Source of the DNA: Candidatus Fervidifonticultor secundus
GTDB taxonomy: Bacteria > Sysuimicrobiota > Sysuimicrobiia > Sysuimicrobiales > Humicultoraceae
DNA length: 27,733 bases
Assembly: GCA_031459385.1 (NCBI GenBank)
Contig: JAVKIP010000029.1
Span: forward strand, 1 to 27,733
Reading direction: 5' to 3'
The translations under genes and the position numbers were made by a program. The notes under the pieces were generated by a model. The model made no database searches and was not told where the DNA came from. It saw only the letters and a program-made list of their open reading frames with translations. Of the stretch, positions 13,494-27,733 are shown one piece after another; position 1 is the stretch's first letter; each line of letters begins with the position of its first letter.

Positions 13494-13571
13494 CGGGGCG
13501 TAGCGCAGCCTGGTGAGCGCGTCTGCTTTGGGAGCAGAAGGTCGGCGGTTCGAATCCGCCCGCCCCGACCA
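13494..13571 (+). tRNA. tRNA-Pro (anticodon TGG)
   Basis: Acceptor CGGGGCG/CGCCCCG, anticodon arm TCTGC-TT TGG GA-GCAGA, T-loop GTTCGAATC, discriminator A and encoded CCA. Confidence 0.97.
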
Positions 13572-17640: not shown

Positions 17641-18690
<1,050 letters not shown>

Positions 18691-18694
18691 CACC

Positions 18695-19630
18695 GTGTCG
18701 GCCGGCACGCCGCCCGCAGCCCCGGTTGCCAGCGAGCCGCGCGAGACGCCGGAACGGCTCCTGCGGCGGCTGGAGTTCACGGTCATCCGGCGGCTCGACG
18801 GGTTCCTGTTCGGCGACTACCGCGGCGTCTTCTACGGCCCTAGCCTCGACCTGGCCGAGGTGCGGGAGTACCAGCCCGGAGACGAGATCCGCCGCATCGA
18901 CTGGAACGTCACCGCCCGCATGAGCCGCCTGTTCGTCCGGCAGTACCTCGAGGAGCGCGAGATCACCGCCTGGCTGCTGGTCGACCTGTCCCCGTCCATG
19001 GCGTTCGGCACGCGCCGGTGCCTGAAGCGAGAGCTAGCCATCGAGTTCGCCGGGGTGGCCTCGTACATCATCACGCGCCACGGCGACAAAGTGGGCGCGG
19101 TCGCGTTCCCGGGTCGCCACCTGCCGGTCATCCCCCCGCGTACAGGCCGCAGGCACGCGCTGCGCATCCTGCACCTGCTGGGCAGGGCGGGTGAGGGCAC
19201 CGGGGGGTTGACGGACCTGGCCGGCGCGCTGCGGCTGGCCGCCGGGATGCTCCGGCGCCGGCACCTGGTTTTCGTCGTCTCCGACTTCCTCGCGCCCGAG
19301 GGCTGGGCGCGGGCGCTGCGCGACCTGGGGCGGCGACACGACGTAGTGGCGGTGTGGGTGCGCGATCCGGCCGAAGAAGCGCTGCCAGACGTGGGTGTGC
19401 TGCCGGTCCGCGACCCTGAGACGGGCGCGCACTGCTGGATCGACACGTCCGACCGGAAGGTGCGGGCGGCGTTCGACCGGCTCGTGGCCGAGCGCCGCGC
19501 GCGGATTGCCGCGGCCTTCCGGCAGGCGCGGGCCGACCCGCTGGAGCTGTCGACGGCGGAGTCGCTGGTGGAGCCGCTAGTGCGGTTCGTCAGGCGCCGG
19601 AGGCGTCAATGGACTTCACCTGGCCGGTGA
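18695..19630 (+). CDS. DUF58 domain protein
   Basis: EVREYQPGDEIRRIDWNVTAR, LLVDLSPSM.FGT, VFVVSDF; follows moxR. Start GTG 18695 inferred. Confidence 0.92.
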   Translation: MSAGTPPAAPVASEPRETPERLLRRLEFTVIRRLDGFLFGDYRGVFYGPSLDLAEVREYQPGDEIRRIDWNVTARMSRLFVRQYLEEREITAWLLVDLSPSMAFGTRRCLKRELAIEFAGVASYIITRHGDKVGAVAFPGRHLPVIPPRTGRRHALRILHLLGRAGEGTGGLTDLAGALRLAAGMLRRRHLVFVVSDFLAPEGWARALRDLGRRHDVVAVWVRDPAEEALPDVGVLPVRDPETGAHCWIDTSDRKVRAAFDRLVAERRARIAAAFRQARADPLELSTAESLVEPLVRFVRRRRRQWTSPGR

Positions 19631-20637
19631 TGCTGTGGGCGGTGGGCCTCGTGCCCCTGCTGCTGCTGGGGCAGAGGTGGCTCGCCCTCCGCCAGCAGCG
19701 GGCAGCGACGCGGTTCGCCGACGCCAGGCTGTTCGACCGGCTGGTGGTGCGTCCGCCGCGCTGGCAGCGCGCGCTGCCCGTCGGCCTGTACCTGGCCGCG
19801 GTCTTCCTGCTGGCCGTGGCGCTCGCCCGACCCGTGGCGGCCATACCGCTGCCGGTCAACCGCGCGGCGGTCATGCTCGCCATCGACACCAGCAGGAGCA
19901 TGATCGCCACCGATGTGCCGCCGTCGCGGCTCGATGCCGCCCGGCAGGCCGCCCGCGAGTTTGCCGCCCTGGTGCCGCGCTCGACGAAGATCGGTCTGGT
20001 CGTCTTCAGCGAGTACGGGCAGGTACTGCTGCCGCCGACGACCGACCGCCAGGCGCTGGCCGAAGCGCTGGAGCGCGTCCAGCTCCAGTCGGCCACCTCG
20101 GTCGGCGGCGGCATCCTGGAGGCGCTGCGCGTCCTGCCGGGCCGGGCGCAGGTGCTTGGCGAGCGGCTGGAGCGGCTGCTGCGCCAGGGCAGCCCGTCCC
20201 CGCCGCTGCCGCCGTCCAGCGGGCCGCCGCCGTCCCCGGACAACTTGGTGCCGGCAGCCATTATCGTGTTCTCCGACGGCGTGAACAACTTCGGGCCCAA
20301 CCCGTTCGAGGCCGCGCAGCTGGCGCGAGAGGGGAAGGTCCGCATCTACACCATCGCCCTGGGCACGCCCGGCGGGGTGGTCATGCGCCTGGACAACCAG
20401 ATGGTCCTGGTGCCGTTCGACGCGTCGGGGCTCGAGCGGATCGCCCAGATGACCGACGGCAAGCACTTCTCCTCGACCCGCGCAGACGCCCTGCGGGCGA
20501 TCGCGCGCGAGTTGGGCCGTGTCATCGGCTGGGAGCGCACGCGGATGGAGGTGTCGTTCCTGCTGGTCGGGGGGGCGGCGGCGCTGATGCTGGCCGGCGG
20601 GGGGCTCTCGCTGGCCTGGTTCAGGCGGCTGCCGTGA
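19609..20637 (+). CDS. VWA domain membrane protein (BatA-like), copy 1
   Basis: N-terminal F.WP..L TM pair, LARP, MIDAS DTSRS...T...FSDG, C-terminal TM. Confidence 0.92.
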   Translation: MDFTWPVMLWAVGLVPLLLLGQRWLALRQQRAATRFADARLFDRLVVRPPRWQRALPVGLYLAAVFLLAVALARPVAAIPLPVNRAAVMLAIDTSRSMIATDVPPSRLDAARQAAREFAALVPRSTKIGLVVFSEYGQVLLPPTTDRQALAEALERVQLQSATSVGGGILEALRVLPGRAQVLGERLERLLRQGSPSPPLPPSSGPPPSPDNLVPAAIIVFSDGVNNFGPNPFEAAQLAREGKVRIYTIALGTPGGVVMRLDNQMVLVPFDASGLERIAQMTDGKHFSSTRADALRAIARELGRVIGWERTRMEVSFLLVGGAAALMLAGGGLSLAWFRRLP

Positions 20638-21665
20638 CGTTCGCGTGGCCGCACCTGCTGTGGGGGCTGACGGTGCTGCCGGCGCTGGCCGCGCTCTACG
20701 CGTGGGCGCTGGAGCGTCGGGCCCGGCGGGCGGTGATCGTGCCCGACGTCGCCCTGTTCGCGGCCGCGGCGGCCGCCCGCAGCCGGTGGTGCCGGCACAT
20801 GCCCGCCGCGTGCTTCCTGGCGGCACTGGCCGCGACGCTGATCGGGCTCGCGCGCCCGGTGGCGCCGCTGCCCGTGCCGGCCAGCCAGGGCGTCGTCGTG
20901 CTGTCGATCGACGTCAGCCGCAGCATGCTGGCCGAGGATCTGCCGCCGAATCGCATGGAGGCCGCCAAGATGGCGGCGCGCGAGTTCGTGCAGACCCTGC
21001 CCCGGGGCTTCCGCGTCGGGCTGGTGACCTTCAGCTCGTACGCGACCACGGTGGTAACGCCGACCAGCGAGCGTGCGCGGGTGCTGGAGGCGATTGACCT
21101 GCTGCAGACCGAGTTCGCCACGGCGATCGGCGATGGGTTGCTGGAGGCCGTCTGGAACCTGCCCGGCCGCCTGCGCCCCACGAGCCCTGGCCTCTCGCCG
21201 GGCGCGCCGTTCGGGCCCGGCGTCCCACCCGGGTCGGTGGCGCCGCCGGGCCCCGGGGCGCCTGCCGGGTCGCTCCCGCCGGGCGTGGTCGTGCTGCTCT
21301 CGGACGGCCAGAGCAACCGGGGCGTGCTGCCCATGGAGGCGGCACGGATCGCGCGCGAACAGCAGGTGAAGGTCTACACGGTCGGGATCGGGACGCCTGA
21401 GGGTACCTTCCTGAACATCGGGGGGCGCAGCATCTGGGTGCGATTGGACGAGGAGACCCTGCGCGGCATGGCGGAGGCCACCGGGGGCGAGTACCACCGC
21501 ACCACCAACCTGGCCGAACTGCGGCGCGTCTACCGGCACCTGGGACGCGAGATCGGATGGGAGCGGCGCCCCACCGAGGTGACCGCCGTCGCTGCCGGCG
21601 CCGGGCTGGTGCTGCTGGTGGTCGCGGTCTCGCTCTCTACGCTGCTCGTCCACCGCGTGGTCTAG
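20634..21665 (+). CDS. VWA domain membrane protein (BatA-like), copy 2
   Basis: Starts at GTG 20634 overlapping the previous stop (GTGA). TFAWPHLL, LARP, MIDAS DVSRS...TAIG...LSDG, C-terminal TM. Confidence 0.92.
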   Translation: MTFAWPHLLWGLTVLPALAALYAWALERRARRAVIVPDVALFAAAAAARSRWCRHMPAACFLAALAATLIGLARPVAPLPVPASQGVVVLSIDVSRSMLAEDLPPNRMEAAKMAAREFVQTLPRGFRVGLVTFSSYATTVVTPTSERARVLEAIDLLQTEFATAIGDGLLEAVWNLPGRLRPTSPGLSPGAPFGPGVPPGSVAPPGPGAPAGSLPPGVVVLLSDGQSNRGVLPMEAARIAREQQVKVYTVGIGTPEGTFLNIGGRSIWVRLDEETLRGMAEATGGEYHRTTNLAELRRVYRHLGREIGWERRPTEVTAVAAGAGLVLLVVAVSLSTLLVHRVV

Positions 21666-21880: not shown

Positions 21881-21956
21881 GGGCCCGTAGCTCAGTGGAT
21901 AGAGCCACCGACTTCTAATCGGTTGGGCGGGGGTTCGATTCCCTCCGGGCCCGCCA
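21881..21956 (+). tRNA. tRNA-Arg (anticodon TCT)
   Basis: Acceptor GGGCCCG/CGGGCCC, D-loop with A20 (Arg identity), anticodon arm ACCGA-CT TCT AA-TCGGT, GTTCGATTC, encoded CCA. A -10 TATACT lies at 21832-21837. Confidence 0.97.
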
Positions 21957-25679: not shown

Positions 25680-25697
25680 ACCACCCCAGTGGGTAGT
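25680..25697. promoter_or_regulatory. Candidate LuxR/NarL-family operator
   Basis: Imperfect 7-4-7 palindrome ACCACCC-CAGT-GGGTAGT in the AT-richer region upstream of the LuxR gene. Confidence 0.4.
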
Positions 25698-25814
25698 AGT
25701 ACGAGTAGCAGCAGGTTCCGAGAATAGAAAACTGGACCCCATCGCCGCACCCGGAGAGTGCATACCTTGCGTCGCATCTCCGCCAGGGTGGGGTCCTGCA
25801 TAGCACGCAGGCGT

Positions 25815-25894
25815 AGATGGACGCAATGAACCCGTCCCACTAGATGACGTGGACGCCTCGGGGACGGGTGAGCGAGTGGCGTAACCGGCCATCT
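25815..25894 (+). ncRNA. c-di-GMP-II riboswitch aptamer
   Basis: P1 AGATGG/CCATCT; A; P2 CGC/GCG; kink-turn AAT-GA.../GA; P3 ACCCGTCCC/GGGACGGGT; pseudoknot TGG-ACGCC (25850-25857) with GGCGT-AA-CCG (25878-25887). The conserved UGAGnnAGUGGnnnAACCG pattern is present with compensatory changes. Confidence 0.88.
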
Positions 25895-25925
25895 CATTCG
25901 CGGGAGTGGGGTGGCCGTTGTGTTT
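25886..25925 (+). terminator. Riboswitch expression platform: intrinsic terminator overlapping the aptamer 3' end
   Basis: 14-bp stem CGGCCATCTCATTC (25886-25899) / GAGTGGGGTGGCCG (25904-25917) including G-U pairs, followed by TTGTGTTT. Confidence 0.75.
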
Positions 25926-25996
25926 GCCGGGGGCTCCGGCGAGCCGGCGCGAACGGCGAATCTCGCCTGTCCGTTGCCAGTGCGGGGGAGGCACGG

Positions 25997-26416
25997 ATGG
26001 CCCAGGCCTATACCGACGTCATCGAACGCTTAGCATCAACCCTGGCCAGCCGCCCGGGCGGTCTCAGCCTCGAAGACGGCGCCGAGTTCGGGCGCGCACT
26101 CGAGGACCTGGCCGCACGGATGGAGAAGGCGGTGGAGATCCTGCGGCAGCTCGTGGAACTCGTCAATCCTCAGGTGATCCCGCAGGACCTGCACCTGACG
26201 CCGCGCGAGCTCGAGATGCTCACGCACCTGGCCGAAGGGCGGAGCAACGCCGAGATCGCCCGGCTCTGCTGGATCTCGGAAAACACCGTCAAGTTCCACA
26301 TGAAGAACATCTTCCGCAAGCTCGGCGTGCGCGACCGCGGCCAGGCCATGATGATCGCCCGAGCCATTCAGCGGCGGCTGGACCGGGGGGCTCCGCCATC
26401 CCCTGCGCAGTCGTGA
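25997..26416 (+). CDS. LuxR/GerE-type HTH transcriptional regulator without receiver domain (139 aa)
   Basis: LTPRELEMLTHLAEGRSNAEIARLCWISENTVKFHMKNIFRKLGV; ATG 25997 with SD GGAGG. Confidence 0.92.
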   Translation: MAQAYTDVIERLASTLASRPGGLSLEDGAEFGRALEDLAARMEKAVEILRQLVELVNPQVIPQDLHLTPRELEMLTHLAEGRSNAEIARLCWISENTVKFHMKNIFRKLGVRDRGQAMMIARAIQRRLDRGAPPSPAQS

Positions 26417-26468
26417 CGCGCGCCCGGGCAGGCCGCTGACGACGTAGCGGAACAAGGGGCGCTTCCAG

Positions 26469-27733
26469 GTGGCCCAGGGACGGCTACTCCCCCGACTTGG
26501 AGCCACGTCGGGCGCGCCCGAGCCCGGCCCCGTCGCGGGACCGCTGATCGCCAGCGCGGCGACGGTCCTTGTCCGGTGGCTGCTGGTCGCCGGGGTGCTG
26601 CTCGTCCCTCTGGCGTTTGGTCCAGATGTGCACCTGGCCAAGCGGCTCATCGTGTGGGCTGTGGCCGTACCTGCGGGACTGCTCTGGTCTGTCCGCACGC
26701 TCGTGGCAGGGCGGGAGCCAGCCCTGGCGCCCGCTGTGGCGGCGCCCGTGCTGATCGTCGCTGGCGTCCTCGGACTGTCGACTGCCAGCGCCATCAGCGT
26801 TCCGGTCGCGATGTGGGGGTCGATCTATCGCCATGAGGGCCTGCTCGTCTGGCTCGCGTATCTCCTGGTGGCACTGCTGACCGCGCATGAGCTCCGATAC
26901 GACCGCTACCTCCAGCAGCGCTGGCTGACGGCCCTGATCGTGGGCGCCATGCTCAGTGCGGCGTACGCCCTGGTGCAGTACGCTGGCCACGATCCGATCT
27001 GGCGGTACCGCGCGCTGCTACGTCCGTTCGGGTTCCAGTCGCACGCGGTGTACCTGGCCATGTACCTCACCCTGGTCGCCCCGGTAGCCCTTGCGCTGTC
27101 CATGCGCCCGGGCCCTGTGCCGGCACGGCTCGTTGGCCTGGTGCCCGTCGTGCTCATCTACGTGGGGGTACTCGTCACCGGATCCCGGGTCGGCTGGGCC
27201 GGGTACTGGCTCGCCACGGGGCTCTGGAGCCTGGCCAGGTGGCCCGGGCTGTACCGGGCCGAGCGGCGGTGGCTCGCGGGTACCTGGGTGGCCCTGGCTG
27301 TGCTCACTATGGCGTACCTTGCGCCGGGCGGTCCGTTGACCCGGACGTTCGACGAGGCGACGCTCCAACGTGTCAGGGCTGCGGGCGCGCTCCGCGACCC
27401 CAACGACGTCAAGCCGCTCGGAACCCGGATGGTCTACACCTTTGCGCACGACGGCGGGATTCCTGTCCGCCTGATGATCTGGCGGGCGGCGATCCACGAC
27501 TGGGCCAGGAGGCCGTGGCTGGGAGGGGGGCTCGAGACGTTCCGTTACTACCCGAAGGGCTGGCGCCCGGGAGACGCGTTCTATGACCGCGCCCACAACC
27601 TCGCCCTCGACCTCGGCGTCTCGACGGGCGTGCTCGGCGTGCTGGGGTTGTCCTGGGCGGTTGCCGCTTTCATGGTTCCGACGGCCAGACAGGCGCTCCG
27701 GGGGCGCGATGCGGCTTGTACGGGTGCCCCGCG
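26469..27733 (+). CDS. O-antigen ligase / Wzy_C family membrane protein (runs off the window end; not in the ORF track)
   Basis: Manual translation from GTG 26469, after an in-frame TAG at 26445, stays open to the window end. Many TM helices with WGSIYRHEG, YALVQYAG.DP, VTGSRVGW, RLMIWRAA...RPWLGGGLETF, DRAHNLALD...TGVLG. Confidence 0.85.
   Translation, partial: MAQGRLLPRLGATSGAPEPGPVAGPLIASAATVLVRWLLVAGVLLVPLAFGPDVHLAKRLIVWAVAVPAGLLWSVRTLVAGREPALAPAVAAPVLIVAGVLGLSTASAISVPVAMWGSIYRHEGLLVWLAYLLVALLTAHELRYDRYLQQRWLTALIVGAMLSAAYALVQYAGHDPIWRYRALLRPFGFQSHAVYLAMYLTLVAPVALALSMRPGPVPARLVGLVPVVLIYVGVLVTGSRVGWAGYWLATGLWSLARWPGLYRAERRWLAGTWVALAVLTMAYLAPGGPLTRTFDEATLQRVRAAGALRDPNDVKPLGTRMVYTFAHDGGIPVRLMIWRAAIHDWARRPWLGGGLETFRYYPKGWRPGDAFYDRAHNLALDLGVSTGVLGVLGLSWAVAAFMVPTARQALRGRDAACTGAP

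Follow-up and report, generated by a model that had tools for sequence, protein, structure and literature searches.

The window analyzed here is the whole of contig JAVKIP010000029.1 (C22), a stretch of 27,733 nucleotides (nt) from the 3.3-Mb genome (72% GC) of Candidatus Fervidifonticultor secundus, and its terminal part carries a riboswitch for c-di-GMP (cyclic diguanosine monophosphate) in front of luxR, a gene for a LuxR-type regulator of 139 amino acids (aa) without a receiver domain. The riboswitch is a genuine member of the c-di-GMP-II class. The reading favored here, which is held with moderate confidence on the basis of sequence comparison, is that this class II element is an ON switch for the receiver-less LuxR, which would be dedicated to activating a Flp/Tad pilus cluster and would probably act on its own promoter too. 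The RNA class is known; the regulator family and the wiring are new. Comparisons were performed with a phylum set of 94 genomes and with metagenome loci; a near-complete congener genome is referred to as G002 and one metagenome locus as L072.

The Rfam covariance model RF01786 (c-di-GMP-II, clan CL00127) matched the forward strand at 25810-25899 over its full length with 54.9 bits (gathering threshold 53.5, E 9e-10), a result that agrees with the class assignment made from the window sequence in an earlier note. The sister models RF03169 (GAG) and RF03170 (GCG) scored 54.6 bits (cut-off 40) and 43.9 bits (cut-off 47.9), respectively; because the RF01786 and RF03169 scores are nearly equal, the clan is certain and the sub-family is left open by score alone. 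The names of the GAG and GCG variants are taken to denote the letters at pocket positions 69, 70, and 73, and on this assumption the changed pocket is absent from the window even though the GAG model passes its cut-off; the letters A, A, and G settle the sub-family as c-di-GMP-II. According to PMC13715770, the A14-U60 pair of structure 3Q3Z is followed by the pocket bases A69, A70, and G73; the ceiling is an adenine, and the floor is A.G. Counted from the last P2 base of the window (25874), adenines stand at +1, +9, and +10 and a guanine at +13, as equivalents of A61, A69, A70, and G73, and the floor is formed by A25821/G25888. When the window aptamer was aligned with 13 hits from relative genomes and the copy of L072 (n = 15), 94% of the cells were paired, double changes were present at 15 of 24 pairs, and the 7 knot pairs were paired in 100% of cases, kinship among the 15 aptamers inflating the contrast between pairing and shuffles. 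All of the elements named in the earlier note (P1, P2, kink-turn, P3, and pseudoknot) were located with the pocket in register (Table 1). The ACGCC/GGCGU knot described there is present, but it is not special to this copy: its core was found as GGCG in 15/15 and as CGCC in 14/15 phylum class II aptamers, and its interpretation as a unique compensatory variant was rejected as the core is normal for the lineage.

Sensing of 3',3'-cyclic GMP-AMP (3',3'-cGAMP), or promiscuity of the aptamer, is regarded as very improbable. A class II variant is known to bind 3',3'-cGAMP with a dissociation constant of 11 nM through the same A64/G68 pocket, the first P2 pair tuning selectivity (PMC13715770). This pair is C-G and not A-U in the window, where the GAG model also scores nearly as high as RF01786; the pocket bases, however, are canonical. 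Among the 7 GGDEF matches in the genome, 3 have an intact-looking GG[DE][DE]F site, and the intact domains carry Asp at the position that is presumably Ser in cGAMP-making enzymes. Genome-wide, 8 class I c-di-GMP aptamers were detected versus the single class II copy. Separately, the 12 phylum class II aptamers without luxR linkage (L032, L033, L035-L044) were observed to have C (11) or U (1) as the A70 equivalent and a U-A pair closing the knot, the 3 luxR-linked copies keeping AA; these letters might mark a phylum-wide variant of altered affinity or ligand, another register with a 1-nt insertion being a possible alternative. The genes behind these 12 aptamers encode secreted Pro/Thr-rich proteins and type IV minor-pilin-like open reading frames (ORFs).

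The aptamer is overlapped by an intrinsic terminator whose hairpin has a predicted free energy of -24.9 kcal/mol (z -5.9; 0/200 shuffles equally stable) and is the only terminator-like site between 25450 and 26600. Its 5' arm takes 9 nt of the aptamer, namely the 3' strand of P1 (CCATCT) and the G73/G74-equivalent pocket bases, so the two folds are mutually exclusive, as had been claimed; the 14-bp hairpin with its tail likewise stood, the U-rich tail (TTGTGTTTG) being weak. The overlap recurs in G002 (14 bp) and in L072 (9 bp, of other sequence), that is in 3/3 luxR-linked copies, and an overlapping GC hairpin with a U-rich tail was seen by eye at 12/12 other phylum class II hits. PMC6200980 describes each of the four class II switches of Clostridioides difficile as an ON switch. 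The overlap geometry, its recurrence in two other loci, and the class II precedent suggest that the switch very probably turns luxR on, and they support the ON logic proposed earlier and the view that the RNA provides the input of the sensor-less LuxR.

An intact aptamer with little regulatory effect, because the long terminator always wins or always leaks, is hardly credible. Such a failure would fit the terminator fold being 16.5 kcal/mol more stable than the aptamer in the window (nearest-neighbor values that count neither knot, kink-turn, nor ligand; the gap is 16.5-17 kcal/mol across the window, G002, and L072) and the weakness of the U tail, whereas the aptamer and terminator are kept in G002 with structure-preserving changes, and the P1 of L072 overlaps a terminator of another sequence. 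Since the terminator fold is far more stable, control would have to be kinetic.

The regulator contains a GerE helix-turn-helix (HTH; PF00196, 72.1 bits) at residues 67-121 and no other Pfam family, and the receiver or ligand-binding domains of NarL/FixJ, VpsT/CsgD, and autoinducer LuxR proteins are absent, in accordance with the earlier view that it has no sensor domain of its own. The 65 helical residues at the N-terminus match no family, and no NCBIfam cut-off was reached, the best match (CsgD) being far under it. In the structure model (pLDDT 80, pTM 0.54), helices 2-18 and 25-56 precede the HTH, and the long amphipathic helix is plausibly a dimerization element. A total of 123 homologs were retrieved at E ≤ 1e-20, mostly of 130-150 aa and with the N-terminal block conserved. 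The best match in a PDB sequence search was VpsT (3KLN), which, like the matches of the fold search, was confined to the HTH. An atlas search with residues 1-62 gave no usable match, a weak search for longer fused relatives of the N-terminal helices gave none at E ≤ 0.001 (GAF fusions were found by other routes), and no RxxD or VpsT-type motif for direct c-di-GMP binding was seen in LuxR. The protein represents a new regulator family with new wiring, all of its functions being predicted.

The link to the pilus is seen in G002, in which the switch is followed by luxR, a Wzy_C gene, a PMT-family glycosyltransferase gene on the opposite strand, DUF5658, a gene for a 69-aa Flp-like pilin (no Pfam match; assigned by size, motif, and position), and then TadE, CpaB, TadG, CpaE, CpaF, TadB, TadC, secretin, and DUF192 genes in this order. 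The inspection of downstream genes for pilin or polysaccharide functions suggested in the earlier note therefore leads into a full Flp/Tad (type IVc) cluster, identified by Pfam matches of the G002 ORFs and by matches of 74-96% identity in the window's own genome, where contig C25 opens with the pilin gene (from base 3), followed by the remaining Tad genes. Full-length LuxR was detected in 10 of the 94 phylum genomes and matching TadE in 11, all 10 included, counts that represent association and no statistical proof because related genomes are not independent; the eleventh, G076, has a stray TadE-like gene plus a different Tad cluster. Tad genes lie near luxR in 7/9 relative genomes and 16/32 metagenome loci (many short or redundant), usually in the order luxR, DUF5658, flp, and LuxR is the sole DNA-binding protein seen in the compact clusters. 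LuxR probably regulates the Tad cluster.

The earlier note overlooked an upstream box that links the luxR promoter to the pilin promoter. Pilin promoters carry the dyad CTACCC-N3/5-GGGTAG-TRG, usually with an extra half-site 11 nt upstream, 23-24 nt ahead of a TAnnnT hexamer (-10) and 5' of the first pilin gene; they have no -35, and the dyad was anchored in 33/34 first-pilin promoter records, 16 of them non-redundant. With a matrix built from the 16 pilin promoters only, the best site in the genome on either strand was the window box (23.0 bits; next 21.3), and of 27 sites of at least 15 bits only the window's joined an upstream position with checkable conservation. Box, second half-site, and GAGAAT hexamer are conserved islands between the window and G002, and transcription is predicted to start near 25732, about 83 nt ahead of P1. 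The hairpin at the head of the leader has a z of -0.9 in the window (not significant) and -2.0 in G002, with one pair-keeping double change. The dyad would be centered near -43, where activators overlapping the -35 region are placed. Among 34 scored luxR upstream regions (41 luxR matches minus 7 short or near-duplicate), 15 scored above the 200 dinucleotide shuffles (p < 0.05), with p = 0.005 for 10 of them; the other 19 did not.

The box at the luxR promoter could be a repression site, so that negative autoregulation would damp the response while the switch and the LuxR-Tad link are kept. A repressor would suit the candidate -10, which differs from that of the pilin promoters, the second half-site between box and -10, and the absence at the luxR promoter of the further upstream half-site that pilin promoters usually have; the dyad-hexamer spacing, however, equals that of the pilin promoters, which without a -35 would need an activator, and no independent consensus promoter (sigma-70) was found upstream of luxR. 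Autorepression is regarded as unlikely.

Alternatively, the switch might turn on luxR and Wzy_C while another regulator or sigma factor reads the box, LuxR having other or broader targets such as surface glycan. The genome contains 8 LuxR-type matches; the box with a good -10 precedes a TPR/Wzy_C/sugar-transferase/glycosyltransferase operon and, divergently, a methyltransferase-like gene in G019 (L056:4352 (-), 4438 (+)) and an MshEN-PilB gene in G038 (L057:4937 (-)); and a site on contig C17 (17.5 or 18.0 bits, poor -10) weakly precedes an NDP-sugar-epimerase-like ORF region. Opposed to these are the dyad symmetry of the box, its association with the LuxR-type Tad cluster, the position of LuxR as the only DNA-binding protein of compact clusters, and the confinement of the Wzy_C adjacency to this genus. 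Two LuxR-less Tad clusters had no box at the pilin promoter, their best sites (12.7 and 8.2 bits) lying inside ORFs. Another reader of the box is considered improbable. The surface-glycan regulon that the earlier note expected does not stand as the main target, given that LuxR co-occurs with and adjoins the Flp/Tad cluster, and is retained in part through the G019 operon. A genome-wide regulon was rejected, as strict dyads are rare in the genome; a loose dyad pattern, with its gap wrongly set, was not consistently above the reversed control in 5 genomes, and the regulon looks local.

Under the favored reading of an ON switch feeding a Tad activator, the terminator 3' arm would, at low c-di-GMP, nucleate on the 5 free top pairs, invade P1 and the pocket, and stop transcription near 25926. 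Bound ligand would hold P1 and delay this strand invasion kinetically until the polymerase passes the weak U tail. LuxR, having no input domain, would then have its activity set by its amount, with the long conserved helix as the probable dimerizer; it would bind the dyad centered about -43, overlapping the -35 region, and activate flp-tadE-cpaB-tadG-cpaE-cpaF-tadB-tadC-cpaC, Wzy_C being expressed along with luxR. As the dyad lies upstream of the riboswitch, self-activation must pass through the switch, and the loop would run only while c-di-GMP is high.

Table 1. Predicted elements of the luxR locus, in window coordinates
Feature	Position	Strand	Details and basis
Dyad box CCACCC-N4-GGGTAG-TAG, predicted LuxR binding site	25681-25699	+	23.0 bits; conserved in G002; binding inferred
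Second right-hand half-site	25703-25711	+	12 nt downstream; conserved in G002; possible extra or repressing site
Candidate -10 GAGAAT	25720-25725	+	23 nt after dyad; pilin-like spacing; conserved in G002
5' leader hairpin	25734-25796	+	begins at predicted start; folds in window and G002; weak
Class II c-di-GMP aptamer	25815-25894	+	Rfam score, pair counts on 15 aptamers, pocket register
P1 AGATGG / CCATCT	25815-25820 / 25889-25894	+	6 bp
P2	25822-25824 / 25872-25874	+	first pair C-G
Kink-turn	within 25815-25894	+	3-nt bulge and tandem G.A pairs; by eye against the consensus
P3	25831-25838 / 25860-25868	+	aptamer helix
Pseudoknot ACGCC / GGCGT	25853-25857 / 25878-25882	+	lengthened by GG/CC
Pocket bases	A25821, A25875, A25883, A25884, G25887, G25888	+	register of PMC13715770 numbering
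Intrinsic terminator	25886-25917, with tail to 25926	+	14 bp, 4-nt loop, tail TTGTGTTTG; overlaps P1 3' strand and pocket bases
Ribosome-binding site	25984-25991	+	read from sequence
LuxR/GerE-type regulator, 139 aa	25997-26416	+	Pfam, 123 homologs, model pLDDT 80, TadE co-occurrence
Wzy_C (O-antigen ligase / O-oligosaccharyltransferase-like) membrane protein	26469-27733, cut by contig end	+	Pfam E 1.5e-15

Several points weigh against this reading, in addition to the energetic balance of the two folds, the weak tail, and the kinship behind the co-occurrence counts. A class II switch precedes luxR in only 2/29 Rfam-scanned orthologous loci (9 genome loci and 20/32 metagenome loci) besides the window, namely G002 (57.2 bits) and L072 (49.3 bits), and the latter copy is under the cut-off and has no A61 equivalent (the ceiling A). 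GAGAAT scores -0.9 bits against the pilin -10 matrix, and 19/34 luxR upstream regions have no significant box, so autoregulation is not family-wide. The pilin-site anchor was picked after the luxR promoters had been viewed, so the box test was not fully blind, and the LuxR-less control clusters belong to another Tad type, with CpaF 45-47% identical. The joining of C22 to C25 is deduced from the G002 order, with no read contig spanning the gap, and one RNA run, available as contigs only, contained no contig over the leader and is uninformative.

The search for the same leader upstream of homologs thus succeeded at two loci and not at the others, and the earlier idea that the RNA stands in for the missing sensor applies at this locus and not to most orthologs, which have no c-di-GMP riboswitch. 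Other ties to c-di-GMP are a class I-type switch ahead of one luxR paralog, an adjoining GGDEF gene (2 genomes), a preceding HD-domain gene (1), and a fused GAF domain (2 proteins). The varied neighbors and leaders indicate that the input of the regulator varies, the riboswitch being one solution. A tree of 36/41 rows was mostly unresolved, and its support of 43/73 speaks neither for nor against a single origin of the three class II leaders. In one clade, a conserved leader of ~250 nt was noted between the box and the luxR start (L052:8365-8560, L070, L071, L076); it occupies the slot of the riboswitch, has no Rfam match, shows a weak consensus fold with double changes at 3/31 pairs, and may be conserved by descent, the clade being a single one.

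The Wzy_C gene is a local insert in the luxR-Tad locus. No terminator was found between it and luxR, with which it is likely co-transcribed, and its product is 72% identical to the G002 protein located between luxR and the Tad cluster; among the loci examined, this position immediately 3' of luxR was seen in the window and G002 only, that is in this genus. The pilin O-oligosaccharyltransferase PglL carries an additional Wzy_C_2 domain. In a comparison with such enzymes (PglL/TfpO), the Wzy_C domain was found alone, with no second domain and no NCBIfam match; the protein might attach glycans to the pilin or to a different surface protein. The RNA run mentioned above included one 195-nt piece in Wzy_C, which may be DNA, and left the pilin/TadE region practically uncovered.

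Further observations were made on the Tad clusters. The PMT and DUF5658 genes of the G002 order were not found in the window's own genome, likely on account of the C22-C25 assembly gap. A small DUF5658 membrane gene lies between luxR and flp in most clusters (L050:15190-15522 and orthologs), and PMT-type glycosyltransferases recur near Tad clusters. Tandem arrays of 2-4 flp pilin copies are present in L093, L099, and L158-L160, and two pilin copies in G047 each have their own box and -10. No prepilin peptidase was found among the annotated cluster ORFs, no search having been aimed at it. An unrelated second type of Tad cluster lies beside glycine-cleavage genes in L170 and L171, from two genomes without this LuxR.

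Elsewhere in the window, ordinary MoxR ATPase, DUF58, and vWA genes (17641-21665) and two ordinary tRNA genes (13494-13568 and 21881-21953) were noted, and homologs of the window proteins bear the database label Armatimonadota, the lineage itself being probably CSP1-3/Sysuimicrobiota. At 27638-27733, read contigs disagree with the window at 27638, 27650, and 27651 and end at 27714, so a variant or a mis-assembly may account for the terminal ~100 bases of the contig.

Elsewhere in the genome, a class I c-di-GMP aptamer was observed before a sigma-70-family gene (G000:C10:15435-15560; L047); it is followed by a terminator of 12 bp with a U tail and is likely a reciprocal OFF switch. A wider proposal, which is tentative and rather doubtful, is that the new sensor-less LuxR family would be the master Tad activator of this phylum, acting on a definable box and, in this genus, driving itself through the class II ON switch so that cells commit to Tad adhesion in a bistable manner, while the class I OFF switch on a sigma factor tied to another type IV pilus system would let one cell toggle between the two pilus machines. 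If true, two riboswitch classes would gate two pilus regulators oppositely, much like the split between flagella and pili in C. difficile. Among c-di-GMP riboswitches, class II occurs less often than class I, and most studies of it concern Clostridia. In the present locus, a class II switch would control a transcription factor for which an operator is predicted and whose regulon is small and defined, and the chain from signal through RNA and activator to pilus could be examined with a short RNA, a protein of 139 aa, and a DNA site of 20 bp. For the Tad pili of this uncultured, widespread lineage, LuxR would also be a first candidate as regulator and the box a first candidate as its site on the DNA.

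No report of this arrangement or locus was found in the literature searched, in which subscription journals were mostly uncovered and unread supplements may list the pairing; a term search of the phylum paper (PMC11604079) returned no mention of pili, riboswitch, or c-di-GMP. The aptamer agrees with RF01786/3Q3Z (PMC13715770) in its helices, kink-turn, knot, and pocket register, and differs in the ACGCC/GGCGU knot, the C-G first P2 pair, and its host in an uncultured lineage. With VpsT and CsgD, the window protein has the LuxR HTH in common, and the likeness is limited to it. VpsT has a c-di-GMP-linked role in surface attachment; its receiver-like c-di-GMP-binding domain is absent from the window LuxR, which has instead two helices without family, atlas, or fold match. 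Cdi-2-4, located before pilA1 in C. difficile, is likewise a class II transcriptional ON switch with a type IV pilus output, but it sits on the pilin transcript itself (PMC6200980, PMC11477304), whereas in the window an activator would stand between the switch and a pilus of the Flp/Tad type. The closest arrangement is cmrRST of C. difficile, in which a class II ON switch (Cdi-2-2) also precedes transcription-regulator genes and CmrR activates its own operon (PMC8844915, PMC11477304), as is predicted for the window LuxR. CmrR and CmrT are response regulators, accompanied by a kinase and by an invertible element, and control pilus-independent motility, whereas the window LuxR has no receiver and is Tad-linked. 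The target of CmrR is promoter P4, which lies downstream of the riboswitch, and the promoter of the riboswitch itself is not acted on (PMC8844915), so the two inputs are independent in cmrRST; the only predicted site of the window lies upstream of the aptamer, and its feedback loop would be gated, being forced through the riboswitch in a logic unlike that of cmrRST.

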